A stretch of 64,000 nucleotides of DNA, from NCBI GenBank assembly GCA_017521965.1, contig JAFXAY010000097.1, forward strand, positions 13,370 through 77,369, written 5' to 3'. The position numbers and the translations under genes were made by a program. Origin of the DNA: Tidjanibacter sp. (GTDB lineage: Bacteria; Bacteroidota; Bacteroidia; Bacteroidales; Rikenellaceae). The notes beneath the pieces were generated by a model, which saw nothing but the letters and a program-made list of their open reading frames with translations, was not told where the DNA came from and did not search any database. Shown in pieces: positions 7,202 through 43,141 of the stretch. Every line of letters begins with the position of its first letter. The stretch's first letter is position 1.

Positions 7202-7314
7202 GCGTCAGTTCAAATAAACTAATCGGCTCCACACTTTCTTTTTGTTAACAATCCCCCATATTGGAGCGTATGGCTTTGAGTTGCAAAATTTATTAACTCA
7301 AACATATTGCTATT

Positions 7315-7449: not shown

Positions 7450-7465
7450 AAAACAAGTAAAGATT

Positions 7466-10502: not shown

Positions 10503-11197
10503 CTCTCGGCTCCTTTCTCAATGCGTGCGGCGAGTGGCACAAGCAGGCGGTTCTCTATCAGAGTGTGAGCCGCAAGTTCCTCCTCGATGCGGTAAATATC
10601 TCTCAGCACAGCGTGCGAAGCCATCGCCTCGTCGGCATCGGGCAGATACTTGATAATAATGTTGAGCAGGTCGGCGAGCTTCTCGTCGATATCGCTATGC
10701 GTCTCGGCAAAGTCGCCGATGGTAAATCCCTCGCCTCGGGTGCCACTAATCAGACTCTCGATATAGGGGAATACGGTCTGCTCCTCGTAGTGGAAATGTT
10801 TGAGCACCTCCGTTTCGTAAACATCATAGAACGAGTTGATTATCTCCCTCTGACGAGCGCTGAGTGCTGCTGCCATAGTGTGAATATGGTCGTGCAGGGT
10901 GGGGAAGTAGTGCTCAGTGTAGTTGTGGTGTGACAGACGCAGAAAATCGACTATCGGGCGCAGGTCGTCGCGTACCAGACGGTCGATGCTCGGCGCGCTA
11001 TTGCGCTCGTCAACTATATTACTCATAGCCACCAGCAGGTGTGCCGATACGCCCTGCTCGGCGCACACCTCCTCCACGCTGCGCTCGCCAAAGCCGAGTC
11101 GCAGCCCCATACGCTCAAAGAGTGTGAGCAGGCGAGGGTTGCTCAGTAGCAGGTCGGCCATCTTCTGGTCGGTGGTATATGGTCTGAGTGTTGTCAT
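10499..11197 (-). CDS. hemerythrin-like di-iron protein (ScdA/YtfE/RIC-like)
   Basis: N-terminal ScdA_N-like segment MADLLLSNPRLLTLFERMGL. His/Glu-rich helical hemerythrin-type repeats (HHNYTEHYFP.., ETHSDIDEK). 4-nt overlap with the regulator gene. Confidence 0.75.
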   Translation of the reverse strand: MTTLRPYTTDQKMADLLLSNPRLLTLFERMGLRLGFGERSVEEVCAEQGVSAHLLVAMSNIVDERNSAPSIDRLVRDDLRPIVDFLRLSHHNYTEHYFPTLHDHIHTMAAALSARQREIINSFYDVYETEVLKHFHYEEQTVFPYIESLISGTRGEGFTIGDFAETHSDIDEKLADLLNIIIKYLPDADEAMASHAVLRDIYRIEEELAAHTLIENRLLVPLAARIEKGAER

Positions 11198-11241
11198 ACT
11201 TTTGCAAAGTTATTGTTTTTTTTAGAATTATCGGTAAAAGG

Positions 11242-13617
11242 TTAGAAAAGTCCGCCGATTAGATAGACCAAATAGGCGACAATCCACGCCACAAGTGTGT
11301 TGTAAATCACTGCAAATGCAGCCCAACCCCGCGAGCCGGTTTCGCTGCGTATGGCGGCAATGGTGGCTATGCAGGGGAAGAAGAGGAGTATGAAGACCAT
11401 AAATGCGGCTGCCGAGCGGGGCGAGTAGTCGCCCGAGTGCACGAGTGCTCCCGCGAGGCTCTCCTCCTCGGTGTTGTAGAGTACTCCCAAAGTGCTAACT
11501 ACCAACTCCTTGGCAGGTATGCTTGCCAGAAGTGCCACACTGCCGCGCCAATCGATATCCATAGGTCGCATCACCGGCTCTATCGCCTTGCCTATGTGTG
11601 CTATATAGCTCTGCTCCTGTGCGTTGGTGGCTGCTATGCTCTCCTCTGCGGGGCGCGGGAAGTAACCCAAAAACCACACCACAACCGAGGCTACCAGCAC
11701 CACGCTGCCGATTTTGCGCAGATACTGAGCGCACTTGTCCCACATATGTTTCACCGTGGAGCGCAGAGTGGGCATACGGTAGGGCGGAAGTTCCATTACA
11801 AAAGGCGTTTCATCGACCTTGAACTTGGTGCGACGCAATAGTCGGGCTGTGAGTGCCGCAACGGCAATGCCGAGCAGGTAGAGCCCGATGAGCACCGTGG
11901 CGGAGTGCCCCGGGAAGAAGGCTCCCGCAAACAATACATAGACAGGCAGTCGTGCGCTACACGACATAAAGGGAGTTATCAGTATGGTTATCAGCCTGCT
12001 GCTGTGGCTCTCGATAGTGCGCGTTGCCATAATGGCGGGCACATTGCAACCAAAACCCATCAGCATAGGGATAAACGACTTACCGTGCAGGCCGAGACGG
12101 TGCATCAACTTATCCATAATAAATGCCGCGCGTGCCATATATCCTGAGTCCTCCATCAGCGATATAAATAGGTATAGCAGCAGGATGTTCGGCAGAAATA
12201 CCGCCACACTACCCACGCCGCCAATCACACCATCGACCAACAGCGCACGGAGCCAACCTTCGGGCAGAGCACCGCCCACAATATCGCCGAGCCAAGCAAA
12301 GAGGCTCTCAATCCACCCCTGCGGATAGGCTCCAACAGTGAATACCGTCCAGAACATCAGCCACATAAGCAGTATGAATATCGGGAAGCCCAGCCAACGG
12401 TTCGACACAAGGCGGTCTATTCGTCGGGTGCGACGAGTGGGGTCGCCCGTGCCCTCGGTGAGGGTCTCGGTGAGTGCACCATCAATAAAACCATACTTGG
12501 CGTCGCTGATGGCGGTTTCGGTGTCGCAGTCGAGGTGTCGCTCGATGCGGGCAGCACCCTTCTCGGCTGAGGTGAGCCACAAAGCGTAGTCCTTACAATC
12601 TGTAAGTGCCTTGCGTACCTCCTTGTCGCCTTCGAGTATCTTCAATGCCCAATAGCGCACGGGGAATTGGTGGGGCAGGTCGTCGGCAGCGTGCATCTGT
12701 TCCGAGAGGGCTGCCACAGCCTCCTCGACGTGAGGACCGTAGTTGATGTGGATATGGCGTACCGTCTTGTTGCGACCCTCGAAGAGTTCGATGACCGTGT
12801 CGAGCAGTTTGTCAAGACCGCTGCGTGTGCGTGCAATGGCGGGTATCATCGGCACACCCATCATCGCTCCGAGGCTTTCGTGGTCGAGTTTCGCGCCACT
12901 TGCCTGCAACTCGTCGAACATATTGAGTGCCACTACGGTACGTTGGTTGAGGTCGATTAACTCGGTGGTCAGAAATAGGTTGCGCTTCAAGTTCGATGCC
13001 ACTACCGAGTTGATTATCACGTCGGGCATCTCCTCCATCAGGTGGTGGCGCACAAATACCTCCTCGGGTGAGTAGGCCGAGAGTGAGTAGGTGCCGGGCA
13101 GGTCGGTGAGCTCTATGCGGTAGCCCTTGTAGTTGAACTTGCCTGTGGTGGCCGAAACGGTGACACCGCTATAATTACCTACGTGCTCGCTACCTCCCGA
13201 GAGGGCGTTGAAAAGCGAAGTTTTGCCACTATTGGGGTTGCCGACGAGTGCTACTCTGATGCGGTTTTTGCGCACTACTTTGAGCCCTGCAAGTGGGTTG
13301 GCTCTGCGCGATGAGCAGCCACAAGCACCGCAACTCTCGCACACCTCCGAACAGCCATACCACTCCGATGGCTCAAACTGCTCGGCTGCCTCCTCCTCGC
13401 TAAGTACCTCAATCATAGCGGCTTCGCGGCGACGCAGCGATACATCGTAGCCCATAACTGTATATTTCACAGGGTCGTGCATAGGTGAGTCGAGCACCGA
13501 TACCACTCGCTCGCCACGCACAAATCCCATCTCCATTATGCGCTTGCGGAAACCTCCGTGGCCGGCTACGCGTACTATGATTGCCGACTGACCTGTATTT
13601 AGTTCTGATAGTTTCAT
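11242..13617 (-). CDS. feoB: ferrous iron transporter, FeoA-FeoB fusion
   Basis: ATG at 13617. FeoA-like MKLSELNTGQSAIIVRV, then the G-domain VALVGNPNSGKTSLFNALSG, then a polytopic membrane domain. Confidence 0.95.
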   Translation of the reverse strand: MKLSELNTGQSAIIVRVAGHGGFRKRIMEMGFVRGERVVSVLDSPMHDPVKYTVMGYDVSLRRREAAMIEVLSEEEAAEQFEPSEWYGCSEVCESCGACGCSSRRANPLAGLKVVRKNRIRVALVGNPNSGKTSLFNALSGGSEHVGNYSGVTVSATTGKFNYKGYRIELTDLPGTYSLSAYSPEEVFVRHHLMEEMPDVIINSVVASNLKRNLFLTTELIDLNQRTVVALNMFDELQASGAKLDHESLGAMMGVPMIPAIARTRSGLDKLLDTVIELFEGRNKTVRHIHINYGPHVEEAVAALSEQMHAADDLPHQFPVRYWALKILEGDKEVRKALTDCKDYALWLTSAEKGAARIERHLDCDTETAISDAKYGFIDGALTETLTEGTGDPTRRTRRIDRLVSNRWLGFPIFILLMWLMFWTVFTVGAYPQGWIESLFAWLGDIVGGALPEGWLRALLVDGVIGGVGSVAVFLPNILLLYLFISLMEDSGYMARAAFIMDKLMHRLGLHGKSFIPMLMGFGCNVPAIMATRTIESHSSRLITILITPFMSCSARLPVYVLFAGAFFPGHSATVLIGLYLLGIAVAALTARLLRRTKFKVDETPFVMELPPYRMPTLRSTVKHMWDKCAQYLRKIGSVVLVASVVVWFLGYFPRPAEESIAATNAQEQSYIAHIGKAIEPVMRPMDIDWRGSVALLASIPAKELVVSTLGVLYNTEEESLAGALVHSGDYSPRSAAAFMVFILLFFPCIATIAAIRSETGSRGWAAFAVIYNTLVAWIVAYLVYLIGGLF

Positions 13618-22197: not shown

Positions 22198-23296
22198 ATG
22201 AATCAAACCCTTACCCCCCCCACTACAAAAAACACGCCAATCTAATTTTGAGTTGTTACGAATCATTTCGATGATTATAATAGTCGTACATCATTATGTT
22301 GTGAATTCGGGTTTTATTGCTTTGTATGATTATAATAATATAACTGGCAATATGCTGTTTTTGCAGTGTATGGGTTTTGGAGGGAAGATGGCTATTAACT
22401 CGTTTGTGTTGCTAAGTGGTTACTTTGTTTGCAAACAAAAAGTTACGTGGCTTAAATTACTGAAGCTATTTACAATGATATACTTTTATAATATACTTTT
22501 TTATATAGTATTTCTTTTTACAGGGCATGAAGAAATTACGCTAAAAAGTATATACAAGGTCGTTTTTAATCCTTTTTATGGAATTGAAAGAGGTTTTACA
22601 GGCTCATTTTTAGCTTTTTATTGTTTAGTACCTTTTTTGAATAGATTTTTACAATCTCTCAATCAGAAGTTGCATTTACGTTTAATACTTTTACTGTTGT
22701 TTATCTATACTTTTGTGGCTACATTCTTATTAAATACTGTTGCGTTTAGTCATATATGGTGGTATGTTACTCTTTATTTCATAGCTGCCTATATCAGATT
22801 ATATCCAAATAAATATACTGATAATAAGAAGTTGGCCTTATGGGTATTCATATGTTCTGTTTTGTTAATTTTTGCAAGTATAGTTGTTGTGGATTTTATA
22901 GGTAGCAGAATAGGTTTTACGAATTATTATCATATGTGTAATGATTCTCAGAAATTCTTAGCACTTACTGGTGGTCTTTCATTGTTTTTGTACTTTAAGA
23001 ACGTACAAATTAAGCATAGTAAATTTATAAACACTATCGCTTCCACTACTTTCGGTGTATTGCTTATTCATGCTAATAGTAATGCTATGCGTACATTCTT
23101 GTGGCAAGATACTTTACAGAATACAGCATTTTATGACTCGGCTTGGTTGCCATTGCATATGTTAATTTCAGTTGTTGGAGTATATGTGATATGTGTTGCT
23201 ATTGACTATTTAAGAATAAAATTTTTAGAGAAACCTATTTTTAGTAAGTTATCTACAAAATACTCGATATTGTATAAGGAGTGTTTCGTAGAGTAA
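22198..23296 (+). CDS. acyltransferase family 3 (O-acetyltransferase), 5' end out of frame at a poly-C tract
   Basis: ORF 22253..23296 (LRIISMIIIVVHHYV, about 10 TM). The ATG at 22198 is in another frame and rejoins the ORF if C8 becomes C7 or C10. Confidence 0.7.
22214..22221. repeat. poly-C tract (C8) inside the 5' end of the acyltransferase gene
   Basis: Eight consecutive C counted directly. Confidence 0.9.
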
Positions 23297-23310
23297 TAAA
23301 TATAAGTGCT

Positions 23311-24423
23311 ATGGTAGATAATAAACAGATAACAGTTACAGCCCCTCTTCTTCCCGACCTAGAGGAGTTTAATGCCTACCTCAAAGAGATTTGGGAAAGT
23401 AAGTGGGTGACTAATAATGGTCAGTTCCACAAACAGTTGGAACATGACCTAGCAGACTATTTGGGGGTGCCATACGTTAGCCTTTTTACAAATGGTACTT
23501 TGCCATTGCTCACGGCGTTACAAGCATTGCGTGTTACCGGTGAGGTGATTACTACTCCATATAGTTTTGTTGCCACTACCCATTGTATATGGTGGAGTGG
23601 TTGTAAACCAGTTTTTGTTGATATAGACCCAGCTACCGGTAATCTTGATCCGGAGAAAATCGAGGCTGCTATCACCCCTAAGACAACAGCGATTATGCCG
23701 GTGCACGTATATGGTAAGCCTTGCGATACTAAACGTATACAGGAGATTGCCGATAAGTATGGCTTGAAGGTTATCTATGATGCAGCACACGCTTTTGGGG
23801 TTAAGGTAGATGGTGAATCTATTCTGAATGCTGGTGATATGTCAACTCTATCGTTTCACGCAACAAAGGTCTATAACACTTTGGAGGGTGGTGCAATGGT
23901 GATGCACGACGAGGCGACTAAAAAACGTATCGATTACCTTAAAAACTTCGGCTTTGCTGGCGAAACAGAGGTTATTGCACCAGGTATCAACTCCAAGGTT
24001 GACGAGGTTCGTGCAGCCTATGGTATATTGAACCTCCGACAAGTTGATGCGGCGATTGAGGCCCGTCATCAGGTAGCAATCAAGTATCGAGAGGCGTTAC
24101 GCAGCATTGATGGCATCTCGTTTATGGAGGATATGCCAGGAGTGAAACATAATTACTCCTATTTCCCAGTGTTTATTGATGCAGAGAAATATGGCATGAC
24201 TCGCGATGAACTCTATTTTAAGATGAAAGATGCCAATGTACTGGGACGCAGATACTTCTATCCTCTCATCAGCGAGTTCTCGACCTATCGTGGCCTTCCC
24301 TCGGCAGCCCCCGAGAACTTGCCAAACGCCCACAAAATGGCAAATAGTGTAATTTGCCTGCCGATGCACCATGAACTCTCGGCAGAGGATGTCGATAGAA
24401 CCTTAGAGTTAATTATTCAGTAA
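23311..24423 (+). CDS. DegT/DnrJ/EryC1/StrS-family sugar aminotransferase
   Basis: ATG at 23311. PLP-lysine motif LSFHATKVYNTLEGG. 371 aa. Confidence 0.9.
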   Translation: MVDNKQITVTAPLLPDLEEFNAYLKEIWESKWVTNNGQFHKQLEHDLADYLGVPYVSLFTNGTLPLLTALQALRVTGEVITTPYSFVATTHCIWWSGCKPVFVDIDPATGNLDPEKIEAAITPKTTAIMPVHVYGKPCDTKRIQEIADKYGLKVIYDAAHAFGVKVDGESILNAGDMSTLSFHATKVYNTLEGGAMVMHDEATKKRIDYLKNFGFAGETEVIAPGINSKVDEVRAAYGILNLRQVDAAIEARHQVAIKYREALRSIDGISFMEDMPGVKHNYSYFPVFIDAEKYGMTRDELYFKMKDANVLGRRYFYPLISEFSTYRGLPSAAPENLPNAHKMANSVICLPMHHELSAEDVDRTLELIIQ

Positions 24424-24427
24424 AGAT

Positions 24428-25633
24428 ATGAAGCAGAAACGGTTAATGCTTCTTGGAGGTATTCGTTATCTCCTTCCCGTTATAGAAGCTGCTCATAAGC
24501 AAGGGTACTATGTTATAACAGCTGATTATTTGCCTGATAATATAGCTCATCAATACTCTGATGAATATGTGAATGTGAGTATTATTGATAAAGAGGCAGT
24601 TTTAAAGGTGGCTCGCGAGAAAGAGATAGACGGTATTATGTCTTTTGGAGTAGATCCAGGTGTAGTTTCAGCATCTTATGTTCAAGAGCAGATGGGCTTA
24701 CCATCTTTTGGCCCTCACGAAAGTGTCGTTATTTTGCAAAATAAAGATAAGTTTCGTGCCTTTCTAAAAGATAATGGTTTCAATGTACCTTGGGCTTTCG
24801 GTTTTGCTTCAATGGAAGAAGCGTTAGGCTCCAAAGATAAATTTTCATATCCTCTGATTGTGAAGCCGACAGACTCAGCTGGTAGTAAAGGCTGTACAAG
24901 AGTGGATCAGGAAGAGGAGTTGCAGAGTGCAATCGAATATGCATTTCAGTTCTCAATTAGTGGCCATATTATTGTTGAAGAATTTATTGAGAAACAAGGT
25001 TGTTCTTCTGATACTGATAGTTATGCAAAAGATGGTAAACTAAGGTTTGTTAGCTTTTCTGCTCAGCGCTTTGATAATAATGCGGTTAATCCATACACTC
25101 CCGCTGCCTATTCTTGGCCTTCGACCTTTACAGACGAAGAAGAGAAATATCTCGCAAGTGAAATACAACGCTTAATCACTTTACTAAACCTCAAAACAGC
25201 GGTCTTTAATATCGAGGTAAGAGTTGGAACTAATGGGAAACCATATATTATGGAATTGACTCCGCGAGGAGGTGGCAATCGATTGTGCGAGATGTTGCGC
25301 TATGCAACGGGCGTTGATATGATTACTGCCATTACTCGTGCTATTGTAGGTGACGAACCTGAAGAGATAGAGCAGAAGCCGTATGATGGCCATTGGGCAG
25401 AAGTGATTTTACATGCAGATAACGATGGTGAATTCGTTAGTTTAGAAATATATCCTAACTTACCTGCGGAGGTTGTGGAAAAAGACCTGTGGGTAAAACC
25501 TGGTGATTTTGTTAGGGGATTTGAGGCTGCCAATGATGCAATAGGTACTTTGGTACTTAAATTTAAGACTGCTGAGGATTTAGAGAAAGCATTGGCAAAT
25601 CAGCATGAATGGCTTAAAGTGATTGTTAAATAA
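24428..25633 (+). CDS. ATP-grasp domain carboxylate-amine ligase
   Basis: Pre-ATP-grasp Rossmann-like N terminus (RLMLLGG..), central KPTDSAGSKG, C-terminal ELTPRGGGN. 401 aa. Confidence 0.8.
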   Translation: MKQKRLMLLGGIRYLLPVIEAAHKQGYYVITADYLPDNIAHQYSDEYVNVSIIDKEAVLKVAREKEIDGIMSFGVDPGVVSASYVQEQMGLPSFGPHESVVILQNKDKFRAFLKDNGFNVPWAFGFASMEEALGSKDKFSYPLIVKPTDSAGSKGCTRVDQEEELQSAIEYAFQFSISGHIIVEEFIEKQGCSSDTDSYAKDGKLRFVSFSAQRFDNNAVNPYTPAAYSWPSTFTDEEEKYLASEIQRLITLLNLKTAVFNIEVRVGTNGKPYIMELTPRGGGNRLCEMLRYATGVDMITAITRAIVGDEPEEIEQKPYDGHWAEVILHADNDGEFVSLEIYPNLPAEVVEKDLWVKPGDFVRGFEAANDAIGTLVLKFKTAEDLEKALANQHEWLKVIVK

Positions 25634-26601
25634 TGGATAAAGCTATTGGTGGTTATAATCAGTTAGAGTTGCGTAGTGGAGGGCATTACCATAAAGACGC
25701 CTTACGTCTAAATACTGCTCGTAACTGTTTAGAGTATATTCTTCGGGTACGTAATTACAAAAAGGTATATGTACCTTACTATACTTGTGAGGTAATTTTG
25801 GAGCCATTCAATAAGTTAGATGTTGCGTATGAGTTTTACCATATTAACGAAGAATTAAATATCAAAGATGATATTAATCTTACAGAGGGAGAGGCTATAT
25901 TGTACACGAATTATTATGGTCTTAAGCAATCAAGCGTTGAGCAATTAGCTAAAAAGTACGGACCTCGTTTAATAGTGGATAATGCGCAAGCGTTTTTTGC
26001 GCCAAGAATTAACGGAATTGACACCTTTTATTCTGCAAGAAAGTTTTTTGGAGTTCCTGATGGCGCTTATTTATATATAGACGAGGAACTTACCGAGGAA
26101 TTGGAACAAGATGTATCATACGACCGAATGCAGCATTTGTTGAAACGTATTGATCTCTCTGCAGAAGCAGGGTATGATGATTTTCAACAAGTAGAGCATG
26201 AACTCTGTAATCAGCCAATTAAAAGAATGTCTAAACTTACAGAGGCTATTCTCTGTTCTATAAACTATAAGAAATGTGCTCAAATAAGGCGAAACAATTA
26301 TTTAGAGTTCGATAAATCTTTGTCTGATTGTAATGGTATTCATCTGGATGTGGATTCTAATGCGGTTCCATTGGCGTATCCTTATCTCGCTGATGATGTA
26401 GATTTACGTAATTGTCTAATATCTAGGAGGATCTATGTGCCAACATATTGGCCTAATGTTGAAGATTGGGCAGGCAATGATGCCCCTGAAACCTTAATGG
26501 CAAATAATATTCTACCTCTGCCTATTGATCAGAGGTGTGGTGTGGAGGACATGAATAGAATAATAAATATTATTTCGAATGGAACAAACAGTTTTGTTTA
26601 G
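25633..26601 (+). CDS. divergent DegT-like (PLP-fold) protein, function unknown
   Basis: Weak collinearity with DegT enzymes (NTARNCLEYIL, VDNAQAFF, SARKFFGVPDG). Assignment is tentative. Confidence 0.4.
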   Translation: MDKAIGGYNQLELRSGGHYHKDALRLNTARNCLEYILRVRNYKKVYVPYYTCEVILEPFNKLDVAYEFYHINEELNIKDDINLTEGEAILYTNYYGLKQSSVEQLAKKYGPRLIVDNAQAFFAPRINGIDTFYSARKFFGVPDGAYLYIDEELTEELEQDVSYDRMQHLLKRIDLSAEAGYDDFQQVEHELCNQPIKRMSKLTEAILCSINYKKCAQIRRNNYLEFDKSLSDCNGIHLDVDSNAVPLAYPYLADDVDLRNCLISRRIYVPTYWPNVEDWAGNDAPETLMANNILPLPIDQRCGVEDMNRIINIISNGTNSFV

Positions 26602-27184
26602 AGTTTTTGAGGAACGTGATATAGATTTTGTATATCGATGCAAGAATGACGAGAAACTCAATTCTCAAATAGTTGGACAATGGCGACCTTTTACATATGC
26701 AGACGCTTGTAAGTGGGTGCAAGGTTGTATGGTAGATCACCAAGAATATAAGTTTTGGGCTGTATGTACAAATGATGACGAGAAGCGTATTGTTGGCTGG
26801 GTTAGTTTGTCTAACATTAATTACAAAGATCAGAGTGCTCATTTTCATGGAATCGTCATTGCAGATCCAATGTATCGCGATGGGTTTGCATGGATAGAAT
26901 CATACCTTTTTATTTTAGACTATGTATTTAATAAATTGGCATTTGAATCACTAACTGGCTCGTGTTTAATTGAACATAAACACAGCACATTAATATCTCA
27001 AGCTCTCTATTTTACAGTATATGAAATAGAAAAAGAATCCATATGTAGGCATGGTAAAATGTATGATCTTGAAAAACATGTGTTAAAAAAAAATGATTAT
27101 ATAACTCATTACAATAATTCAGAATATGATATAATGTCTATTGTAATGAGAATGAGTAAATTAAGAAGACTGTCTAATTGTTAA
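26579..27184 (+). CDS. GNAT-family N-acyltransferase
   Basis: RimJ/RimL-like N terminus (LFRVFEERDIDFVYRCKND). 201 aa. 23-nt overlap with the upstream gene. Confidence 0.65.
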   Translation: MEQTVLFRVFEERDIDFVYRCKNDEKLNSQIVGQWRPFTYADACKWVQGCMVDHQEYKFWAVCTNDDEKRIVGWVSLSNINYKDQSAHFHGIVIADPMYRDGFAWIESYLFILDYVFNKLAFESLTGSCLIEHKHSTLISQALYFTVYEIEKESICRHGKMYDLEKHVLKKNDYITHYNNSEYDIMSIVMRMSKLRRLSNC

Positions 27185-27188
27185 TAAT

Positions 27189-27422
27189 ATGAATATGGAG
27201 CTAAATGAATTTGTAGCGAATTTCGCTGAGCAGTTTGATGACACAGATCCCGCTGAAATTAAGGCTGAAACCACATTTCGTGAACTTGAAGAGTGGTCAT
27301 CGCTTGTTGGTATGAGTGTTATTGCTCTCGCTAAAACAACTTATGGAAAAGCTATTACTGGAGCTGAACTTAAAACATGTCAAACTGTTGAAGATGTGTT
27401 TAATTTGATTAGCAATAAGTAG
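27189..27422 (+). CDS. acyl carrier protein
   Basis: 77 aa, acidic, four-helix pattern. Candidate phosphopantetheine serine in EEWSSLVGMSVI. Confidence 0.8.
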   Translation: MNMELNEFVANFAEQFDDTDPAEIKAETTFRELEEWSSLVGMSVIALAKTTYGKAITGAELKTCQTVEDVFNLISNK

Positions 27423-27432
27423 TAGTAAGGCT

Positions 27433-28191
27433 ATGGAGCAATTTAATCCGTTTTCCCTAAACGGTAAAACAGTAATGGTGACCGGTGCTTCTTCTGGCAT
27501 CGGTCGTGCCATTGCTGTTGCCTGCTCAAAAATGGGAGCACATGTAGTGTTAACTGCAAGGAATGAACAACGTTTGCAGGAGACAATGGCCCAACTCGAT
27601 GGAGATGGTCATAGCTATATTGTTGCAGATTTAACAAATAGTACTCATGTTTCGAACCTGATTGATCAATGCCCAAAGTTAGATGGTGTTGTGCATAACG
27701 CAGGCGTTGGAAGTAGAGTTCTATGTAAATTTATATCAAATGATGATGTAAATAATGTAATGGCTCCCAATTTTGAGGCACCTGTAATGTTACAATCGGC
27801 ATTGTTGCAAGGAGGTAAAATCAATAAGGCCTCGTCAATCGTTTTTATTGCTTCTCGTGCAGCAAATGCTCCTAGTATAGGTAATGCCATATATAGTGCG
27901 TCCAAAGGTGCAATCATTTCTTATTCTAAGTGTTTGGCCTTGGAGTTGGCTCCTCGTAAAATTAGGGTCAATTGTGTATGTCCTGCCATGGTGTGGACTG
28001 ATTTGATTATTCAGGATGGCGTTACAAAAGAAGCGTTAGAAGAGGCACAACAAAGATACCCTCTGAAAAGATATGGTCAACCTGAGGATATTGCATATCT
28101 TGTTATTTATCTTTTGTCTGATGCATCCGCTTGGATGACTGGTAGTAGTCTGGATATAACGGGGGGTGGCGAAGGAACTTTAGTGTTATAA
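27433..28191 (+). CDS. SDR oxidoreductase, 3-oxoacyl-ACP reductase (FabG)-like
   Basis: VTGASSGIGRAIA and YSASKGAI motifs. Confidence 0.9.
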   Translation: MEQFNPFSLNGKTVMVTGASSGIGRAIAVACSKMGAHVVLTARNEQRLQETMAQLDGDGHSYIVADLTNSTHVSNLIDQCPKLDGVVHNAGVGSRVLCKFISNDDVNNVMAPNFEAPVMLQSALLQGGKINKASSIVFIASRAANAPSIGNAIYSASKGAIISYSKCLALELAPRKIRVNCVCPAMVWTDLIIQDGVTKEALEEAQQRYPLKRYGQPEDIAYLVIYLLSDASAWMTGSSLDITGGGEGTLVL

Positions 28192-28193
28192 TT

Positions 28194-29195
28194 ATGAAAG
28201 CATTTATTAAAGCAATATCATACTATTTGCCTGAGCGAATAGTGACAAATGAGGAACTTGTTGCAGAGTTTCCCGAATGGAGTGTAGATAAAGTTGCAGC
28301 AAAGGTTGGGGTATATTCTCGTCATCTATCTGCACCGGATGAAACAGCCGGTGATATGGCAGAAAAGGCTGCCCGTCAGCTTTTCGAGGAGTACAATGTT
28401 GATCCAAAATCAATAGATTTTCTTATGCTCTGTACTCAGAGTCCGGATTATTTCTTGCCATCCACTGCATGTATTCTTCAAAACCGATTAGGTATTTCAA
28501 CTTCGGCTGGTGCGTTTGACTATAACCTTGGGTGTAGTGGATGTGTATATGGCTTAGTAGTTGCGAAAGGATTAATAGAGAGTGGGATTGCAAAGAATGT
28601 ATTAATGCTGACTGCAGAGACATATCAAAAGTATCTTCATCCTTCTGATAAGAGTAATCGCTCAATATTTGGCGATGGTGCAGCAGCATGCTTGATTTCT
28701 ACTGAAGGCATAGCAGAGATAGGCAATTTCTCGTTAGGCACAGATGGTAGTGGAGCTGAGCATTTGATTGTCAAAACAGGTGCTACTCGCTGCAAACACT
28801 CAACTGGAAATGTCGCAGAAGATGCAGATGGTCATAAACGTTTTGATGATTACCTTTATATGAATGGTTCGGCAATCTTTAATTTTACTCTAGATGCTGT
28901 ACCTGCAATGATGAAAGATATTTTGTTGAAGAACGAAATGGAACGTGACGATGTAGATTATTTTGTCTTTCATCAAGCGAATAAATTTATGCTCAATACC
29001 ATCCGAAAAGTTTGTGTGATACCTAAGGATAAGTTCTATGTAAATTTAGAAGAGACAGGAAATACGGTTTCCTCTACAGTAATGATTGCCCTTAAGGATT
29101 GTATAGATAGAGGAACTATCTGTCCTGGAATGAGCGTAATGATAACTGGCTTCGGAGTAGGTCTTAGTTGGGGTGGTACAATTTTGAAGTTTTAG
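28194..29195 (+). CDS. 3-oxoacyl-ACP synthase III (FabH-like)
   Basis: Catalytic Cys in LGCSGCVYGL, His in FHQANKFM, Asn in ETGNTVSST. Confidence 0.9.
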   Translation: MKAFIKAISYYLPERIVTNEELVAEFPEWSVDKVAAKVGVYSRHLSAPDETAGDMAEKAARQLFEEYNVDPKSIDFLMLCTQSPDYFLPSTACILQNRLGISTSAGAFDYNLGCSGCVYGLVVAKGLIESGIAKNVLMLTAETYQKYLHPSDKSNRSIFGDGAAACLISTEGIAEIGNFSLGTDGSGAEHLIVKTGATRCKHSTGNVAEDADGHKRFDDYLYMNGSAIFNFTLDAVPAMMKDILLKNEMERDDVDYFVFHQANKFMLNTIRKVCVIPKDKFYVNLEETGNTVSSTVMIALKDCIDRGTICPGMSVMITGFGVGLSWGGTILKF

Positions 29196-29274: not shown

Positions 29275-29520
29275 ATGAGTGACACTCCAGTAGTTAGTAT
29301 CTGTAGTTTAGTATATAATCATGAGCCTTATTTAAGACAGTGTCTTGATGGGTTTGTGATGCAGCAGACCAATTTTAGGTTTGAAGTTATCATTCACGAT
29401 GATGCATCTACCGATGGGTCGGCAGATATAATCCGAGAATATGCAGCAAAATATCCAGACATATTTCGTCCTATATTTCAGACCGAGAATCAATGTCGCG
29501 ATGGACGTGTAATGCTTTAG
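29275..29520 (+). pseudogene. 5' remnant (81 codons) of a family 2 glycosyltransferase
   Basis: VVSICSLVYNHEPYLRQCLDGF..IIHDDASTDGS is a normal GT2 N terminus, but the frame stops at codon 82. Only 130 nt remain before the next gene. Confidence 0.75.
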
Positions 29521-38733: not shown

Positions 38734-39315
38734 TTACTCTTCGGCCTCCTCCTCGGCTGTCGGCTCCTCCGAGCGTTGAGGCTCGGCAGTGAAGATAGAG
38801 AAGTTGACGCTACCATAACTTCTTGTTTGCCAAAAGTTTGGGTGCTCCTCGAAGCGTTTACGGTCCGAATGCTCAAAAATGAGCAGTCCATCCTCTCTGA
38901 GCAGCCCTTTTTCGAAGACCAAGTCAATCACCTGCTCTGCGCCCTGCAAGTCGTAAGGTGCATCGGAGAAAATCACGTCAAACTGTTTGGCGCAACTCTT
39001 CAAATAGAGAAACACGTTAGCCTTCAAGGCGTGCAGCTGCCCGAAGCCCAACTGCTCGGCAGTCTTGCGGATAAAGGCGTGGTGCACCGCATTAATCTCC
39101 ACCGAGGTGACATTTCGCGCACCGCGTGAGCAGAACTCATAGCTGATAGAGCCCGTACCCGAGAAGAGGTCGAGCACATCTATCTCCTCCCAATCGACCA
39201 GATTGCCCAAGACGTTAAACAGATTCTCCTTTGCAAAATCTGTGGTGGGCCTTGCTCGCAGGTTCTTCGGGGGGACTATTGTACGTCCTCTATATTTGCC
39301 GCTGACTATTCGCAT
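38734..39315 (-). CDS. rsmD: 16S rRNA (guanine966-N2)-methyltransferase
   Basis: MRIVSGKYRGR start, DLFSGTGS and SDAPY motifs. The longer ORF to 39759 is an upstream read-through of the frame. Confidence 0.9.
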   Translation of the reverse strand: MRIVSGKYRGRTIVPPKNLRARPTTDFAKENLFNVLGNLVDWEEIDVLDLFSGTGSISYEFCSRGARNVTSVEINAVHHAFIRKTAEQLGFGQLHALKANVFLYLKSCAKQFDVIFSDAPYDLQGAEQVIDLVFEKGLLREDGLLIFEHSDRKRFEEHPNFWQTRSYGSVNFSIFTAEPQRSEEPTAEEEAEE

Positions 39316-39341
39316 ATCTCTTATATATAATATAGGTATAA

Positions 39342-39962
39342 CTATTCCAACACCGTCTTGCCGAAGTAACGTTTCACCTCCTTGCGCAACTCGGCGGCTT
39401 GTCGGCCGCTCAGCCAGACTCTGCCACCCTCCAAGGGATACTCCTCTTTCACCGTAGCCAGCGAGTAGAGCAGGTCGGCAGGGGTGGGGCAGTGGAGTGC
39501 CGCAGCGTAGAGCATAGCACCCTCGCGTGATGCCACAACGTAGAGGTGACGCTTGGTGAGGATAAGTGTGTAGCCCGTGCGCTTCTGGCCTGTGGTGCGC
39601 TCGGCGGCAGCCACAAGTGGCGAAGTGTAACGCAGAGCCAGGCCACCGTGGCGCTTGGTGATGCGCTCGATGGCGACAGTGGGTAGCAACGCAGCAAGTC
39701 GCCACGCTCCGGCTGCCGACTCCACAATCTGCATCTCGTCGCCCTTGGCTACGCCACACATAGCAAATGCCTCCTCGGCACTTGGACCCTCGGTAGCGGG
39801 CAATAGCATCTGCTGCGGAGTGTCGATACTGACCTCCACGATAGACTCACCGCCCTCGGTGAGTGTTGCCTCTGTCAGAGAAAAAGATTGTCCATCCGAC
39901 CCTTGTCGAATGGACAATCCGTATCTGATATTGGCAACTTGATTACTCCCAGTTACCTGCAT
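39342..39962 (-). CDS. DUF3822-like protein
   Basis: N-terminal YGLSIRQGSDGQSFSL resembles the DUF3822 start. Its position next to rsmD is typical for Bacteroidetes. Confidence 0.65.
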   Translation of the reverse strand: MQVTGSNQVANIRYGLSIRQGSDGQSFSLTEATLTEGGESIVEVSIDTPQQMLLPATEGPSAEEAFAMCGVAKGDEMQIVESAAGAWRLAALLPTVAIERITKRHGGLALRYTSPLVAAAERTTGQKRTGYTLILTKRHLYVVASREGAMLYAAALHCPTPADLLYSLATVKEEYPLEGGRVWLSGRQAAELRKEVKRYFGKTVLE

Positions 39963-40569
39963 CGTTAGTAGCCTGATACATATCACCAACCTTTACGCCG
40001 GGGTAACGGTTGAGGTTCTTCTCAGAGTCAATCAGGTTAACCAACTCCTGGTGCGAGAGGTCAGCCATAAAGGTCTTGTAAGGAGCCTTGCACTCGAATA
40101 CGGGAACGACAACCTTCGACTCGGTGGTCAACTCGCCAGCATCCATAATAAACTCTGCGCCATTACCGTAGGGGATAAGCTTGAACTGCTTAACATCCTC
40201 GGGAGTTACCTTCTTGGTACCGAAGATAGTGTCGATTACGTTCATAGTGATAATCTCCACGTTCTTCAAACCCTTCTTCTTCAACTCTGCCATTGCAGCC
40301 GAGTCATCCTCCGATACAAGGCGCTTCTCATAGTCGATAGTACCGTTGAGTACGAAATCGATCAGAGTGTCCATACTGGGAGTGTAGCGCTGGTGTACCT
40401 GCTTGTAGGCACGCTGAGCGGTACGGATGTCTTTGATACGGTCAACAACAGCCTCCTTGCGGACGGTGAGCTCCTTGTTGAAGGTAGTGGTAGAGGTAAC
40501 CTGATTGTAAATCACATAGGCCAGACCGATGATTACGAGGCCCAAAACAATTTGTAAAACCTTTTTCAT
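39943..40569 (-). CDS. membrane-anchored hypothetical protein
   Basis: ATG at 40569 gives MKKVLQIVLGLVIIGLAYVIY (an N-terminal TM helix). No motif recognised. Confidence 0.65.
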   Translation of the reverse strand: MKKVLQIVLGLVIIGLAYVIYNQVTSTTTFNKELTVRKEAVVDRIKDIRTAQRAYKQVHQRYTPSMDTLIDFVLNGTIDYEKRLVSEDDSAAMAELKKKGLKNVEIITMNVIDTIFGTKKVTPEDVKQFKLIPYGNGAEFIMDAGELTTESKVVVPVFECKAPYKTFMADLSHQELVNLIDSEKNLNRYPGVKVGDMYQATNDAGNWE

Positions 40570-40637
40570 TTCTATTAATAATTTTATTAAGTTTGTATTC
40601 AATTCAACGCGCTAACCACACTAAACCAAGTCGGCAA

Positions 40638-42068
40638 ATGATTAACGACCATATCAAGTCCCAAATTTACAGCAAATTTTCTTTTACTCCAACAAATGGA
40701 CAAAATAAAATTATAGAAAATTTAGCAAATTGGATTTCCGAGCCCGATTTTGACACCATTTTCATACTAAATGGCTATGCAGGTACCGGAAAAACCACCT
40801 TGATATCGGCATTTGCCCACACACTCGCCGAGTTGCGCATCAAACCGATACTGCTTGCACCGACCGGTCGTGCCGCCAAGGTTATAGCCCAAATGACGGG
40901 TATGCCGGCCCACACAATCCACAAAAGAATCTACCGTCAGAAGTCACTCGCCGATGCCGAGGCGCGCTTCTCGCTCAACTTTAACAAGGAGAAAGATGCG
41001 GTCTTCATCATCGACGAGGCCTCGATGATTGCCGACTACTCGATAGATGGCTCAATCTTCGGTAGTGGCTCTCTGCTCGACGACCTCTTTGAGTATGTGC
41101 GCAGTGGTGAGCGATGCCGAATAATGTTTGTGGGCGATGCTGCTCAGCTCCCACCCGTGGGTCACGAGCTGAGCCCTGCGCTCAACCCCGAGCGTATGAA
41201 GGCTTTCGGGCAGGTGATTTACGAAACCCTCGACGAGGTGGTGCGCCAGCAGATGGACTCGGGTATTCTCTTCAACGCTACTATGGTGCGCTGTATGCTC
41301 GATGCGGGTATCTACGAGATACCGCTCTTCGACACCTCTTTCCCCGATTTCAAGGCCATCAGTGGTGCCGAGGTGTTGGAGAAGGTGGAGGAGTGCTACT
41401 CCCGCTATGGGCGTGACGATGTGATAGTTATCACTCGCTCCAATAAGCGTGCTAACCGTTTCAATGAGGGTATCCGACGTATCAACCTATGTGCCGAGGA
41501 GGAGATTGAGTCGGGCGATATGCTGATGGTCGTGAAGAACAACTACCACTTCACCGAGCGCGAGGAGGATTGCAAAATCGACTTTGTGGCCAATGGCGAC
41601 ACTGCACGCCTGATGCGTATCCGTCGCTACTACGACCTCTATGGCTTCCGCTTTGCCGATGCTGTGTTGCGCTTTGCCGACTACGACGACTATGAACTCG
41701 ACTGCAAAATCCTGCTCGACACCCTCTCTTCGGAGGCACCTGCGCTGACCGTTGAACAGAACAAGACGCTCTTCTCGGCCATCGAGGAGGACTACGCCGA
41801 GGTGACAAACAGGCGTGAACGCTATAAGAAGATTCGCGAAGATGCCTTCTACAACGCTATGCAGGTTAAGTTTGGCTATGCTGTCACCTGCCACAAGGCA
41901 CAGGGTGGACAGTGGAGTGCGGTCTTTGTGGATAAGATGCTCTTTGGCGACGAGGAGATTTCGCGCGACCTTTTGCGTTGGCTCTACACCGCCATCACCC
42001 GCGCCACCGAGCGACTCTATCTGGTCAACTTCGACGACCGCTTCTTGGCCGAGCCTGCGGAGGAGTAG
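40638..42068 (+). CDS. RecD-like superfamily 1 DNA helicase
   Basis: Walker A LNGYAGTGKTT, DEASM, and C-terminal CHKAQGGQW. Confidence 0.85.
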   Translation: MINDHIKSQIYSKFSFTPTNGQNKIIENLANWISEPDFDTIFILNGYAGTGKTTLISAFAHTLAELRIKPILLAPTGRAAKVIAQMTGMPAHTIHKRIYRQKSLADAEARFSLNFNKEKDAVFIIDEASMIADYSIDGSIFGSGSLLDDLFEYVRSGERCRIMFVGDAAQLPPVGHELSPALNPERMKAFGQVIYETLDEVVRQQMDSGILFNATMVRCMLDAGIYEIPLFDTSFPDFKAISGAEVLEKVEECYSRYGRDDVIVITRSNKRANRFNEGIRRINLCAEEEIESGDMLMVVKNNYHFTEREEDCKIDFVANGDTARLMRIRRYYDLYGFRFADAVLRFADYDDYELDCKILLDTLSSEAPALTVEQNKTLFSAIEEDYAEVTNRRERYKKIREDAFYNAMQVKFGYAVTCHKAQGGQWSAVFVDKMLFGDEEISRDLLRWLYTAITRATERLYLVNFDDRFLAEPAEE

Positions 42069-42091
42069 ATATTGCTACTACAATATAACAA

Positions 42092-42128
42092 GAAAGGCTG
42101 TCCCTCAATGTGGAACAGCCTTTTCTTA
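42092..42128. terminator. bidirectional terminator
   Basis: 9-bp stem AAAGGCTGT/ACAGCCTTT between convergent genes. Confidence 0.6.
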
Positions 42129-42145
42129 TTGGCGTAATATAGTAA

Positions 42146-43141
42146 TTACTCAGCCTTACCTGCGCTACCCAGAACGTTCTCGCACTTGTGCATATAGAGC
42201 TTCTTCAACTCGTCACGAGCGGGACCCAGATATTTGCGGGGATCGAACTCGGCAGGATTCTCAACGAAAATCTTGCGAACAGCAGCGGTCATAGCCAGAC
42301 GACCGTCGGAGTCGATGTTGATCTTGCAAACTGCGCTTGCAGCAGCCTTGCGCAACTGCTCCTCGGGAATACCTACTGCATCCTTCAAAGCGCCACCGTG
42401 GGTGTTGATGATCTTAACATACTCCTGAGGTACGCTCGACGAACCGTGGAGTACGATGGGGAAACCGGGGAGCTGCTTCTCGATCTCCTCGAGGATGTCG
42501 AAACGCAACTCGGGGGGAACGAGGATACCATCAGCATTGCGGGTGCACTGCTCGGGTTTGAACTTGTTAGCACCGTGCGAAGTACCAATCGAGATAGCCA
42601 ACGAGTCAACGCCGGTCTTGGTAACGAAGTCAACAACCTCCTCGGGACGGGTGTAGTGAGCAACCTCCGACGAAACCTCGTCCTCAACGCCTGCCAATAC
42701 ACCGAGCTCGCCCTCAACAGTTACGTCGAACTGGTGAGCGTACTCAACAACCTGCTTGGTCAGAGCCACGTTCTCCTCGTAGGGGAGGTGGCTACCGTCG
42801 ATCATAACCGACGAGAAGCCCATATCGATACAGCTCTTGCAAAGCTCGAACGAGTTACCGTGGTCGAGGTGCAGAACGATAGGAATGTTCTTGCCCAACT
42901 CCTTTGCATACTCAACAGCACCCTGAGCCATATAGCGGAGGAGGGTCTGGTTAGCATACTTACGAGCACCGCTCGATACCTGCAAGATAACGGGCGACGA
43001 GCACTCAACGCAAGCCGAGATGATAGCCTGCATCTGCTCCATATTGTTGAAGTTAAATGCGGGGATAGCGTAGCCACCCTCAATTGCTTTTGCGAACATC
43101 TCACGGGTGTTCACAAGACCTAAATCTTTGTAAGATACCAT
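42146..43141 (-). CDS. fba: class II fructose-1,6-bisphosphate aldolase
   Basis: AIPAFNFNNMEQ, LHLDHG and LHGSSSVP motifs. Confidence 0.95.
   Translation of the reverse strand: MVSYKDLGLVNTREMFAKAIEGGYAIPAFNFNNMEQMQAIISACVECSSPVILQVSSGARKYANQTLLRYMAQGAVEYAKELGKNIPIVLHLDHGNSFELCKSCIDMGFSSVMIDGSHLPYEENVALTKQVVEYAHQFDVTVEGELGVLAGVEDEVSSEVAHYTRPEEVVDFVTKTGVDSLAISIGTSHGANKFKPEQCTRNADGILVPPELRFDILEEIEKQLPGFPIVLHGSSSVPQEYVKIINTHGGALKDAVGIPEEQLRKAAASAVCKINIDSDGRLAMTAAVRKIFVENPAEFDPRKYLGPARDELKKLYMHKCENVLGSAGKAE

Follow-up and report, generated by a model that had tools for sequence, protein, structure and literature searches.

A predicted pathway to an N-(3-hydroxybutanoyl)-aminoacyl 4-amino-4,6-dideoxyglucose in a polysaccharide locus of a Bacteroidales bacterium

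Which sugar is made by a compact set of genes that places a private acyl carrier protein, a ligase and a divergent DegT-fold protein directly behind a sugar aminotransferase? This question is raised by a Bacteroidales bacterium, whose Wzx/Wzy polysaccharide locus we analyzed in a window of 64,000 nucleotides (the whole stretch of DNA considered here). On balance, we favor the reading that six genes and the aminotransferase gene upstream of them encode one pathway, all steps of which are inferred, to dTDP-4-[N-(3-hydroxybutanoyl)-aminoacyl]amino-4,6-dideoxyglucose. The predicted product would be the Bacteroidales counterpart of the sugar found in E. coli O123 and Salmonella O58. The module is most likely a modified form of the O123 pathway, for which the chemistry of the product is known in E. 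coli.

All six open reading frames were confirmed on the plus strand at positions 24428-29195. From the aminotransferase gene through the KAS III gene the junctions measure, in order, +4, -1, -23, +4, +10, and +2 nt, which bears out the tight packing described in an earlier, sequence-only reading of this DNA, as well as its placement of the six genes directly 3' of a sugar 4-aminotransferase gene. The GC content of the region is 0.33-0.42, compared to ~0.50-0.55 in the flanks, and the "low-GC core" of that reading was thus confirmed. Its fold assignments for the six products also held, based on Pfam and NCBIfam matches, sequence motifs, and a structural model of the 322-aa protein, which is referred to as P322 in the following. 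The genes of the module are:

23281-24423, plus strand: VioA/DesI-type PLP aminotransferase, 5' of the six genes and first enzyme of the module
24428-25633, plus strand: ATP-grasp carboxylate-amine ligase of the L-amino-acid-ligase type, 401 aa
25633-26601, plus strand: P322, DegT-fold protein, probably PLP-dependent, 322 aa
26579-27184, plus strand: GNAT N-acyltransferase of the Acetyltransf_3 type, 201 aa
27189-27422, plus strand: dedicated acyl carrier protein (ACP), 77 aa
27433-28191, plus strand: FabG-like short-chain dehydrogenase (SDR; 3-oxoacyl reductase), 252 aa
28194-29195, plus strand: KAS III (FabH-like) condensing enzyme, 333 aa

The pathway steps as numbered below correspond to gene order. 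In step 1, RmlA and RmlB would supply dTDP-4-keto-6-deoxyglucose, which the VioA/DesI-like enzyme would convert to dTDP-4-amino-4,6-dideoxy-D-glucose (dTDP-Qui4N, viosamine). The gene for RmlA belongs to the locus, and an rmlB match of 463 bits lies outside it in the same genome. The aminotransferase matched PF01041 with 334 bits, its closest solved relative is DesI (PDB 2po3, E 3e-67), and its gene shares 66-69.5% nucleotide identity with annotated E. coli vioA genes. According to these similarities, dTDP-Qui4N should be its product. At the protein level, the enzyme is 53% identical to the DegT enzyme of the E. coli O123/O186 cluster, in which the genes are ordered rfbB-rfbA-wzx-DegT-WbqC-hypothetical (324 aa)-GNAT-MaoC.

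The ATP-grasp ligase would activate the carboxylate of an amino acid and join it in amide linkage to the 4-amine of dTDP-Qui4N (step 2). It matched PF13535 with 50.7 bits and LAL_C2 with 25.6 bits, the latter under the cut-off of 29.4, and its structural relatives include PDB 4dim (E 2.7e-24) and the L-amino acid ligase 3vot (E 6e-19). We predict an aminoacyl-Qui4N product because of this L-amino-acid-ligase-like fold, the fixed place of the gene after VioA, and its mutual exclusivity with WbqC. Among the 83 loci that hold a P322 homologue, 63 contain the ATP-grasp ligase directly 3' of the VioA-like gene, WbqC fills the same slot in 19, and none contains both; the single locus with neither ligase type is a 4-kb fragment. 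Shared position and mutual exclusivity suggest that the ATP-grasp ligase and WbqC may be equivalent.

A different use of the same genes follows from the sequence-only reading: a 3-hydroxybutanoyl group would pass from the ACP directly onto the 4-amine of Qui4N, while the ATP-grasp enzyme, perhaps with P322 supplying the amine, would amidate the uronic acid formed by the UDP-sugar dehydrogenase and epimerase that the same locus encodes at 15.8-18.2 kb. Such a scheme would resemble the glucuronamide system of the C. jejuni capsule, from which pairs of ATP-grasp amidoligases and DegT-like PLP enzymes are known. The acylation of viosamine by an ACP route also has a genetic precedent (PMC3927599). 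However, the ligase and P322 travel with the VioA-like gene, copies of which (59-84% identical) lie 5' of the P322 homologue in 75/83 loci, rather than with the dehydrogenase (9/83) or the epimerase (14/83). The gene order VioA-ligase-P322-acyltransferase is fixed, and the homologous O123 cluster produces an aminoacyl-Qui4N. The proposed amidation of a uronic acid is therefore not supported by the distribution of these genes, and we regard direct acylation combined with uronic acid amidation as improbable.

The most divergent member of the module is P322. It matched no Pfam or NCBIfam model, and a comparison with PF01041 gave no match at E ≤ 0.01. In an alignment with the neighboring aminotransferase (hhalign), D116 and K137 of P322 coincide with the PLP-binding Asp and Lys, and both residues are invariant across 149 diverse family members. 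The predicted structure (pLDDT 96.4) superimposes on ArnB, DesV, WecE, PglE, and DesI with Z-scores of 22-24 and an rmsd of ~2.9 Å over ~270 residues. These data agree with its earlier description as a divergent PLP-fold protein. P322 shares this fold and the PLP Asp/Lys positions with the DegT/DnrJ/EryC1/StrS aminotransferases, but it is only 12-19% identical to the five enzymes named above and ~45-60 residues shorter. Moreover, its gene always lies 3' of a genuine aminotransferase and a ligase, unlike genes of DegT enzymes that accompany a keto-sugar-forming enzyme. The family is very large, with more than 7300 clusters at 50% identity (E ≤ 1e-3); we found no curated Pfam or NCBIfam model and no characterized member for it, and the proposed pathway brings this family in. 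Over its full length, P322 is 34% identical (E 2e-57) to the protein named "hypothetical" in RefSeq that is encoded between WbqC and the GNAT in the O123/O186 cluster.

P322 may modify the aminoacyl group once it is attached to the nucleotide sugar (step 3), because a ligase is present in 82/83 P322 loci, while half of the close ligase orthologues and the O121 cluster of E. coli lack P322. We examined 66 loci with ATP-grasp orthologues at 72-82% identity, and a P322 gene was located directly downstream in 33 of them and absent from this position in the other 33, with the same distribution of ligase identities in both sets. Loci without P322 are ordered DegT-ligase-acyltransferase-ACP-FabG-FabH, and their GNAT slot is held by another GNAT or a hexapeptide acyltransferase. 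The tailoring would most likely be an L-to-D epimerization, a role suggested by the contrast between the O123 and O121 clusters of E. coli and by the optional presence of P322. We hold this step more tentatively than any other; D-alanine is supplied by the peptidoglycan pool, so that an epimerase would not strictly be needed.

The same final product could also arise if P322 were an aminotransferase acting on a ligase-attached 2-oxo acid, or a decarboxylase converting Asp or Glu residues to alanyl, beta-alanyl, or GABA-type groups. Either activity would create or expose a free amine for the next enzyme. All structural neighbors of the P322 model are aminotransferases, the PLP Asp and Lys are retained, and BtrK of butirosin biosynthesis is a PLP decarboxylase that acts on a tethered amino acid. 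In addition, wherever the gene after P322 could be typed, it encodes an amine-modifying enzyme (GNAT, hexapeptide acyltransferase, second ATP-grasp ligase, or methyltransferase). However, in O121 and Shigella dysenteriae type 7 N-acetylglycine is attached to Qui4N, and the O121 cluster (DegT-WbqC-GNAT, without a homologue of the 322-aa protein) yields glycyl-Qui4N with WbqC alone, so that at least WbqC-type ligases deliver an amine-bearing amino acid. The ATP-grasp orthologues at 72-82% identity, in turn, are followed by an N-acyltransferase with or without P322, indicating that the amine is there without it. A transaminase or decarboxylase function of P322 thus appears unlikely, and tailoring by epimerization is the reading that we retain.

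In step 4, the housekeeping FabD (fabD was found elsewhere in the genome) would charge the private ACP, and KAS III would condense the resulting malonyl-ACP with acetyl-CoA. The FabG-like reductase would then form 3-hydroxybutanoyl-ACP, as judged from the chemistry of these families. Since a dehydratase and an enoyl reductase are absent, the chain would stop at 3-hydroxybutanoyl; the primer of KAS III, and with it the chain length, is not readable from sequence. The ACP matched PF00550 with 23 bits (cut-off 20.8), and its Ser38 within the motif EW-x-S-L (EW-S-S-L in this ACP) is invariant among 21 homologues from related loci. The SDR, which carries the motifs TGASSGIG and YSASK, scored 166.9 bits with adh_short_C2 and ~157 bits with the best FabG models, below every FabG equivalog cut-off. 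KAS III matched NF006829 (276.3 bits, cut-off 249), PF08541, and PF08545, and its previously noted catalytic triad was confirmed as Cys116 (in GCSG, which starts at 113), His260 (HQAN), and Asn290 (in GNT, which starts at 289). A 78% identical KAS III copy is encoded beside an ACP and an SDR in one related locus (L136), and an independent contig with an 84% identical P322 homologue has the same P322-GNAT-ACP-SDR-KAS III order. No phosphopantetheinyl transferase is encoded in the window, as already observed from the sequence, and the sole match in the genome (PF01648) lies on another contig (C69). The proposal that a short 3-hydroxyacyl-ACP is made on site gains support from these data and matches the viosamine island of P. 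syringae. As proposed for that system, the reductase could also act after the acyl transfer.

The GNAT (PF13302, 38.6 bits), homologues of which occur in 19/83 P322 loci and mostly directly 3' of the P322 homologue, is predicted to cap a free amine by moving the 3-hydroxyacyl group onto the alpha-amine (step 5). It is 25% identical (E 1e-14) to the GNAT in the equivalent position of the O123/O186 cluster. Acyl transfer had been expected to target the amino sugar itself. Transfer by the GNAT is supported, but the sugar amine is probably not the acceptor. A likelier one is the alpha-amine of the amino acid that the ATP-grasp ligase would first attach to Qui4N, because the VioA-like enzyme, P322, and the GNAT are homologous to and colinear with their O123/O186 counterparts. 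Among GNAT enzymes, CoA thioesters are commoner acyl donors than ACP thioesters, which counts against an ACP donor in this step.

An ACP, an ATP-grasp enzyme, a PLP enzyme, and an acyltransferase in one operon also recall butirosin biosynthesis, where BtrI, BtrJ, BtrK, and BtrH are an established precedent for ACP-dependent N-acylation of an amino sugar. By this logic, the ATP-grasp enzyme would load an amino acid on the thiol of the ACP, P322 would modify it there, KAS III and the reductase would extend or modify the chain, and the GNAT would transfer the completed chain to Qui4N in a single step. Yet an ACP is present in only 20/83 P322 loci, the ligase and P322 occur without it in ~3/4, and ACP, SDR, and KAS III are found together in ~1/4. 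The E. coli O123 cluster contains no ACP, and KAS III enzymes use acyl primers and malonyl-ACP rather than aminoacyl-ACP. We consider this scheme very improbable, in contrast to the assembly of the acylated amino acid on Qui4N.

The module resembles E. coli O123/O186 most comprehensively. The two share the VioA-type enzyme (53% identity), the ~320-aa DegT-fold protein (34%), the GNAT (25%), and a gene order in which VioA and the DegT-fold protein flank a ligase-type gene. The predicted product architecture (Qui4N, amino acid, and 3-hydroxyacyl group) is also shared: in O123 and Salmonella O58, according to the title of Perepelov (2010) as cited in PMC7685785, Qui4N is N-acylated by N-[(S)-3-hydroxybutanoyl]-D-alanine. 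The systems differ in the ligase (ATP-grasp in the window, WbqC in O123/O186), in the host (Bacteroidales bacterium versus E. coli), and in the source of the 3-hydroxyacyl group, which would be the private ACP, KAS III, and ketoreductase in the window and a MaoC hydratase with a CoA thioester as its substrate in O123/O186. In the literature we found no published assays of the module enzymes, WbqC, or the 324-aa protein of O123.

Three further O-antigen and flagellin systems share parts of this logic with the module, and a fourth has an ATP-grasp gene. The E. coli O121 O antigen bears N-acetylglycine (PMC7685785), and this cluster, like that of Shigella dysenteriae type 7, has the order VioA-ligase-GNAT and combines an aminoacyl group on Qui4N with a GNAT-dependent N-cap; it differs by WbqC instead of ATP-grasp, an acetyl cap, and the lack of a P322 homologue and of acyl-synthesis genes. 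E. coli O49 contains a 3-hydroxybutanoylated Qui4N without an amino acid, and its cluster (vioA-VioB-MaoC) has no ligase and no P322 homologue. The P. syringae island comprises vioA, vioS (KAS III), vioR (reductase), acp, vioB, vioM, and vioT, and mutants support that VioA, KAS III, the reductase, and the ACP lead to N-(3-hydroxybutanoyl) viosamine (PMC3927599). Although the VioA, KAS III, 3-oxoacyl reductase, and small dedicated ACP are common to this island and the module, the island lacks an amino-acid linker, a ligase, and a DegT-fold accessory enzyme, and its target is flagellin instead of a Wzy-dependent polysaccharide. The acyltransferase of the island, VioB, carries an acetyltransferase annotation, in contrast to the GNAT of the window; the VioB of E. 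coli is a hexapeptide protein of the NeuD/PglB/VioB family and not a GNAT. Finally, in C. difficile type B flagellin modification (CDR20291_0244-0247), an ATP-grasp gene (PF13535) adjoins a dTDP-sugar aminotransferase gene and is genetically required for a peptidylamido amino sugar with an amide-linked, peptide-like group (PMC5207246). There the sugar is Fuc3N, formed via an FdtB-type 3-aminotransferase, and the partners are FemAB-like and ornithine-cyclodeaminase-like proteins; a DegT-fold accessory protein, an ACP, and KAS III are absent.

The module is enclosed by a Wzx/Wzy polysaccharide locus that also encodes an initiating GT4, a UDP-sugar dehydrogenase, an epimerase, rmlA/C/D, wzx, an acyltransferase-3, wzy and several GT2. 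Its GC content is 0.33–0.42, compared with ~0.50–0.55 in the flanks. The six open reading frames between 24428 and 29195 lie exactly where the sequence-only reading had placed them, all on the + strand, with junction spacings of +4, −1, −23, +4, +10 and +2 nt from the upstream aminotransferase gene onward. Profile searches backed five of the six identities named in that reading. The ATP-grasp protein matched PF13535 with 50.7 bits (cut-off 27), while the LAL_C2 C-terminal domain scored 25.6 bits, under its cut-off of 29.4; in the PDB it matched the L-amino acid ligase 3vot (E 6e-19). The acyltransferase is a GNAT that matches PF13302. The dedicated ACP matched PF00550 with 23 bits (cut-off 20.8), and Ser38, the second serine of its EW-x-S-L motif, is invariant in an alignment of 21 homologues from related loci and is the predicted phosphopantetheine-accepting residue. 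The SDR carries the TGxxxGIG and YxxxK motifs and scored ~157 bits on FabG models, none of whose equivalog cut-offs (222–301 bits) was reached. The KAS III protein matched NF006829 with 276 bits (cut-off 249), and its Cys116, His260 and Asn290, which lie within GCSG, HQAN and GNT motifs, are what we take to be the Cys-His-Asn triad as in E. coli FabH. The KAS III gene is followed by a GT2 stub of 81 aa (29275–29520); since the GT2 open reading frame at the same position in the nearest relative (L096, 4303–4758) is longer, with 151 aa, the copy in the window is further truncated.

The gene directly upstream of the six (23281–24423) encodes a DesI/VioA-type 4-aminotransferase, whose best solved relative is DesI (2po3, E 3e-67). 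At the DNA level it shares 66–69.5% identity with annotated E. coli vioA over ~570 bases. A small-molecule aminotransferase resembling C. jejuni Cj1437 was considered for this protein and set aside, because DesI is by far its best solved relative. None of 5,426 complete E. coli genomes was matched when the six genes were searched with megablast, and a distant blastn search with the module matched the vioA part only. The locus lacks a dTDP-glucose 4,6-dehydratase gene, and rmlB is located on another contig of the same genome (assembly of 1.77 Mb in 98 contigs). The locus relies on the following genes outside itself:

Genes found on other contigs of the source genome (G000)
C95, 9323–10387, − strand: rmlB (dTDP-glucose 4,6-dehydratase), profile match of 463 bits
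C69, 924–1112, − strand: PPTase, the only match in the genome
C86, 18176–19033, + strand: fabD

As rmlB, PPTase and fabD are present elsewhere in the genome, the absence of these helpers from the locus is no argument against its function.

The remaining protein, of 322 aa (25633–26601), had no match at E ≤ 0.01 in Pfam, PF01041 included, or in NCBIfam, and precomputed Pfam domains were absent among its listed homologues. It nevertheless belongs to a huge family that has no curated model: a word-indexed search scored 8,000 candidates, of which more than 7,500 were significant, and a full HMMER scan retrieved 7,310 clusters (50% identity) at E ≤ 1e-3 and 1,442 at E ≤ 1e-30. Sequence searches of the family against the PDB returned nothing significant, the lowest values being a cysteine desulfurase at E 0.5 and a spurious match at E 0.11. 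In a profile-profile alignment with the neighboring aminotransferase, IVDNAQAF of the 322-aa protein falls on IYDAAHAF and YSARK on SFHATK, which places D116 and K137 on the PLP-binding Asp and Lys of the aminotransferase. Neither residue varies across 149 diverse family members, and the two are the predicted PLP-binding Asp and Schiff-base Lys, respectively. An initial structure model from 24 close homologues had a low pLDDT of 61 and gave way to one from the 149-sequence alignment (pLDDT 96.4). The latter superimposes on ArnB, DesV, WecE, PglE, DesI and similar enzymes with Z-scores of 22–24 and an rmsd of ~2.9 Å over ~270 residues (ArnB: Z 23.8, 2.8 Å, 270 residues), and its top 50 structural matches are all nucleotide-sugar aminotransferases or close kin. 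The earlier description as a divergent PLP-fold, DegT-like protein thus holds, given the superposition of the modeled fold and the aligned, invariant D116 and K137. In four other loci (L110, L112, L125 and L141), the corresponding slot, ~150 nt past the ATP-grasp gene, is occupied by a distant relative whose identity is 23–25%; genes for a second ATP-grasp ligase, a GNAT, a FabD-like protein, an ACP and a FabG come next. This arrangement suggests a second subfamily of DegT-fold accessory enzymes.

The genomic context of the family was assessed in 83 loci that encode a 322-aa homologue, the majority in gut and rumen Bacteroidales genomes; these loci were searched with the proteins of the window. 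An independent contig has the same module order, with a 322-aa homologue that is 84% identical. A VioA-like gene (59–84% identity) was present in 75 of the 83 loci. In 63 loci an ATP-grasp ligase gene immediately preceded the 322-aa gene, and in 19 a WbqC-family gene (PF08889) occupied the ligase slot; the two ligase types never occurred together, and the single locus with neither is a 4-kb fragment. The genes for the GNAT, ACP, FabG-like protein and KAS III were found in only 19–24 loci. Where it was typed, the gene after the 322-aa gene varied but always encoded an enzyme that modifies amines; GNATs, hexapeptide acyltransferases, methyltransferases and second, distant ATP-grasp ligases were seen. 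Two loci (L025 and L058) contain, from about +1.6 to +5.5 kb past the 322-aa homologue, the series GNAT-ACP-KAS III-FabG-KAS III-FabG, which allows two rounds of condensation and reduction and could yield a 3,5-dihydroxyhexanoyl-type cap; such an acyl group is listed in PMC3210612 as known on an amino sugar of Flavobacterium psychrophilum. In two further loci (L001, 8962–16921; L002, 3371–11330), the 322-aa homologue is followed by a second ATP-grasp ligase and a C-C bond lyase, and the same stretches encode a two-subunit fumarase-type hydratase, a 2-hydroxyacid dehydrogenase and a PrpD-like dehydratase, which looks like on-site making of an unusual dicarboxylic or hydroxy acid as cap.

These co-occurrence data also bear on two other explanations of the module. 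According to the sequence-only reading, the ATP-grasp enzyme may amidate a uronic acid, in which case Qui4N would be acylated directly, a situation similar to that in the C. jejuni capsule. However, neither the UDP-sugar dehydrogenase (9/83 loci) nor the epimerase (14/83) co-travels with the 322-aa gene, and the homology to the E. coli O123 cluster also argues against this scheme, which we regard as quite unlikely. That the ACP is loaded with the amino acid, in the manner of butirosin, is highly improbable, as an ACP gene is present in only 20 of the 83 loci and absent from the O123 cluster.

The reverse sample comprised 66 metagenomic loci with orthologues of the window's ATP-grasp ligase (72–82% identical) and enough downstream sequence. 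The 322-aa gene was directly downstream of the ligase gene in 33 of these loci and absent there in the other 33, and ligase identity was indistinguishable between the two groups (medians 75.9% and 76.1%). Loci without the 322-aa gene had the order VioA-ligase-acyltransferase-ACP-FabG-KAS III, where the acyltransferase was, for example, a hexapeptide enzyme (L134) or a GNAT (L136). Since nearly all loci with a 322-aa gene contain a ligase gene and half of the ligase loci do without the 322-aa gene, the 322-aa protein needs the ligase, but not vice versa. Judged by gene order, the 322-aa gene is an optional insert between the putative ligation and capping steps. An obligate ligase subunit was set aside as an identity of the 322-aa protein, because half of the close ligase orthologues lack its gene. 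In L136, the full-length ligase gene is followed by a 152-aa open reading frame (7280–7738) that holds no more than the LAL_C2 end of such a ligase, apparently a fragment left by duplication, and a 591-aa SIR2_2-domain protein (10602–12377) is encoded after the KAS III gene.

We propose a pathway of five steps. The VioA-like enzyme, as predicted from its sequence, would convert dTDP-4-keto-6-deoxyglucose to dTDP-Qui4N. The ATP-grasp ligase would then activate an amino acid with ATP to an acyl phosphate and form an amide with the 4-amine, as suggested by its likeness to L-amino acid ligases, its gene position and its mutual exclusivity with WbqC. In the third step, the 322-aa enzyme may invert C-alpha of the sugar-bound aminoacyl group through an external aldimine with its free alpha-amine. 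Such an epimerisation is possible, although we place it somewhat short of an even chance; transamination of a 2-oxoacyl group or decarboxylation are the alternatives, and an aminotransferase or decarboxylase in this place, which would leave the overall pathway unchanged, appears unlikely. KAS III, malonyl-ACP and the reductase would supply 3-hydroxybutanoyl-ACP, with a single elongation round because no dehydratase or enoyl reductase is encoded. Finally, the GNAT would cap the alpha-amine, an acceptor that fits its kinship within PF13302, to which the N-alpha-acetyltransferases RimJ and RimL belong.

The E. coli O123/O186 cluster, with the order rfbB-rfbA-wzx-DegT-WbqC-hypothetical (324 aa)-GNAT-MaoC, resembles the module in several respects. 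It encodes a VioA-type aminotransferase, to which the window enzyme is 53% identical, and its 324-aa "hypothetical protein" is homologous to the 322-aa protein over its whole length (34% identity, E 2e-57) and holds the same position between ligase and GNAT, the GNAT again following the DegT-fold protein (25% identity, E 1e-14). In contrast to O123/O186, an ATP-grasp ligase rather than WbqC (PF08889) directly follows the window's aminotransferase, and tblastn with two WbqC proteins found none in the window. Likewise, O123/O186 has a MaoC-type hydratase for 3-hydroxybutanoyl-CoA supply, whereas the window has ACP, KAS III and reductase, and no MaoC homologue was found there. The O121 antigen carries its N-acetylglycine on Qui4N, and its cluster contains DegT-WbqC-GNAT without a 322-aa homologue. 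In O49, 3-hydroxybutanoyl is attached directly to Qui4N, and the cluster (vioA-VioB-MaoC) has neither a ligase nor a 322-aa homologue. The N-acetylglycine of O121 is amide-linked (PMC7685785), and the title of a 2010 paper cited in the same article gives O123 and Salmonella O58 a Qui4N that is N-acylated by N-[(S)-3-hydroxybutanoyl]-D-alanine. The process of elimination leaves the ligase-type gene tracking the amino acid, the GNAT the cap, MaoC (in the window ACP, KAS III and reductase) the 3-hydroxyacyl donor, and the 322-aa protein a feature of alanine that is missing in glycine, for which the D configuration would be the obvious candidate. In blastn searches, the O123 WbqC and 324-aa genes matched solely O123/O186-type genomes, leaving no other E. 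coli serogroups for a correlation with D-amino acids. On a 46-kb E. coli plasmid (NZ_OZ547465.1), an IS-flanked cassette (38919–42365) has the order rfbB-rfbA-wzx-like-DegT-GNAT-ACC deaminase/D-cysteine desulfhydrase-like (fold-type II PLP)-ATP-grasp-GT, which is another combination of ligase and PLP enzyme beside a VioA-like gene.

The 322-aa family always accompanies a ligase that can itself do without it, and it occurs with D-alanine but not with glycine; on this pattern it can be assigned a specific, testable role. A further-reaching reading, tentative and on the doubtful side as a whole, is that this unmodeled DegT-fold branch (over 7,300 clusters at the 50% identity level) has lost keto-sugar amination and applies PLP to the side chain of aminoacyl nucleotide sugars, probably for L-to-D inversion, and that with swappable ligases (ATP-grasp or WbqC) and caps it forms a mix-and-match toolkit of Bacteroidales. 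If so, gut and rumen Bacteroidales would use it to furnish surface glycans with side chains of D-aminoacyl or peptide-like type. The window illustrates how surface glycans become diverse, namely by exchange of functionally equivalent parts: the ligase type, the acyl-donor route and an optional tailoring step. Amino sugars bearing amino acids and hydroxyacyl groups are major antigenic determinants of O antigens, capsules and flagellins, and the window connects an E. coli structure that has been solved chemically with a gene family of gut and rumen Bacteroidales that has thousands of members. Our literature search, O123 and O121 included, found no biochemical study of the 322-aa family, WbqC, this ATP-grasp subfamily, an ATP-grasp enzyme with Qui4N or viosamine with an ACP.

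Other known systems share single parts of the module. In P. syringae, the same ACP/KAS III/reductase gene set makes N-(3-hydroxybutanoyl)viosamine, as supported by mutants (PMC3927599), and the window resembles this ACP route in its KAS III with Cys-His-Asn and its dedicated ACP with a predicted phosphopantetheine serine; unlike the direct acylation by a VioB-type (hexapeptide) enzyme in P. syringae, the acyltransferase of the window is a GNAT. The peptidylamido-Fuc3N of C. difficile type B flagellin depends on an ATP-grasp gene, on genetic evidence (PMC5207246). Unlike butirosin BtrI/BtrJ/BtrK, the ATP-grasp and PLP enzymes of the module are not tied to the co-encoded ACP. The kind of product is already known from E. 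coli O123 and Salmonella O58, and the ACP route from P. syringae; new here is the combination of both routes in one module, together with an ATP-grasp ligase that replaces WbqC.
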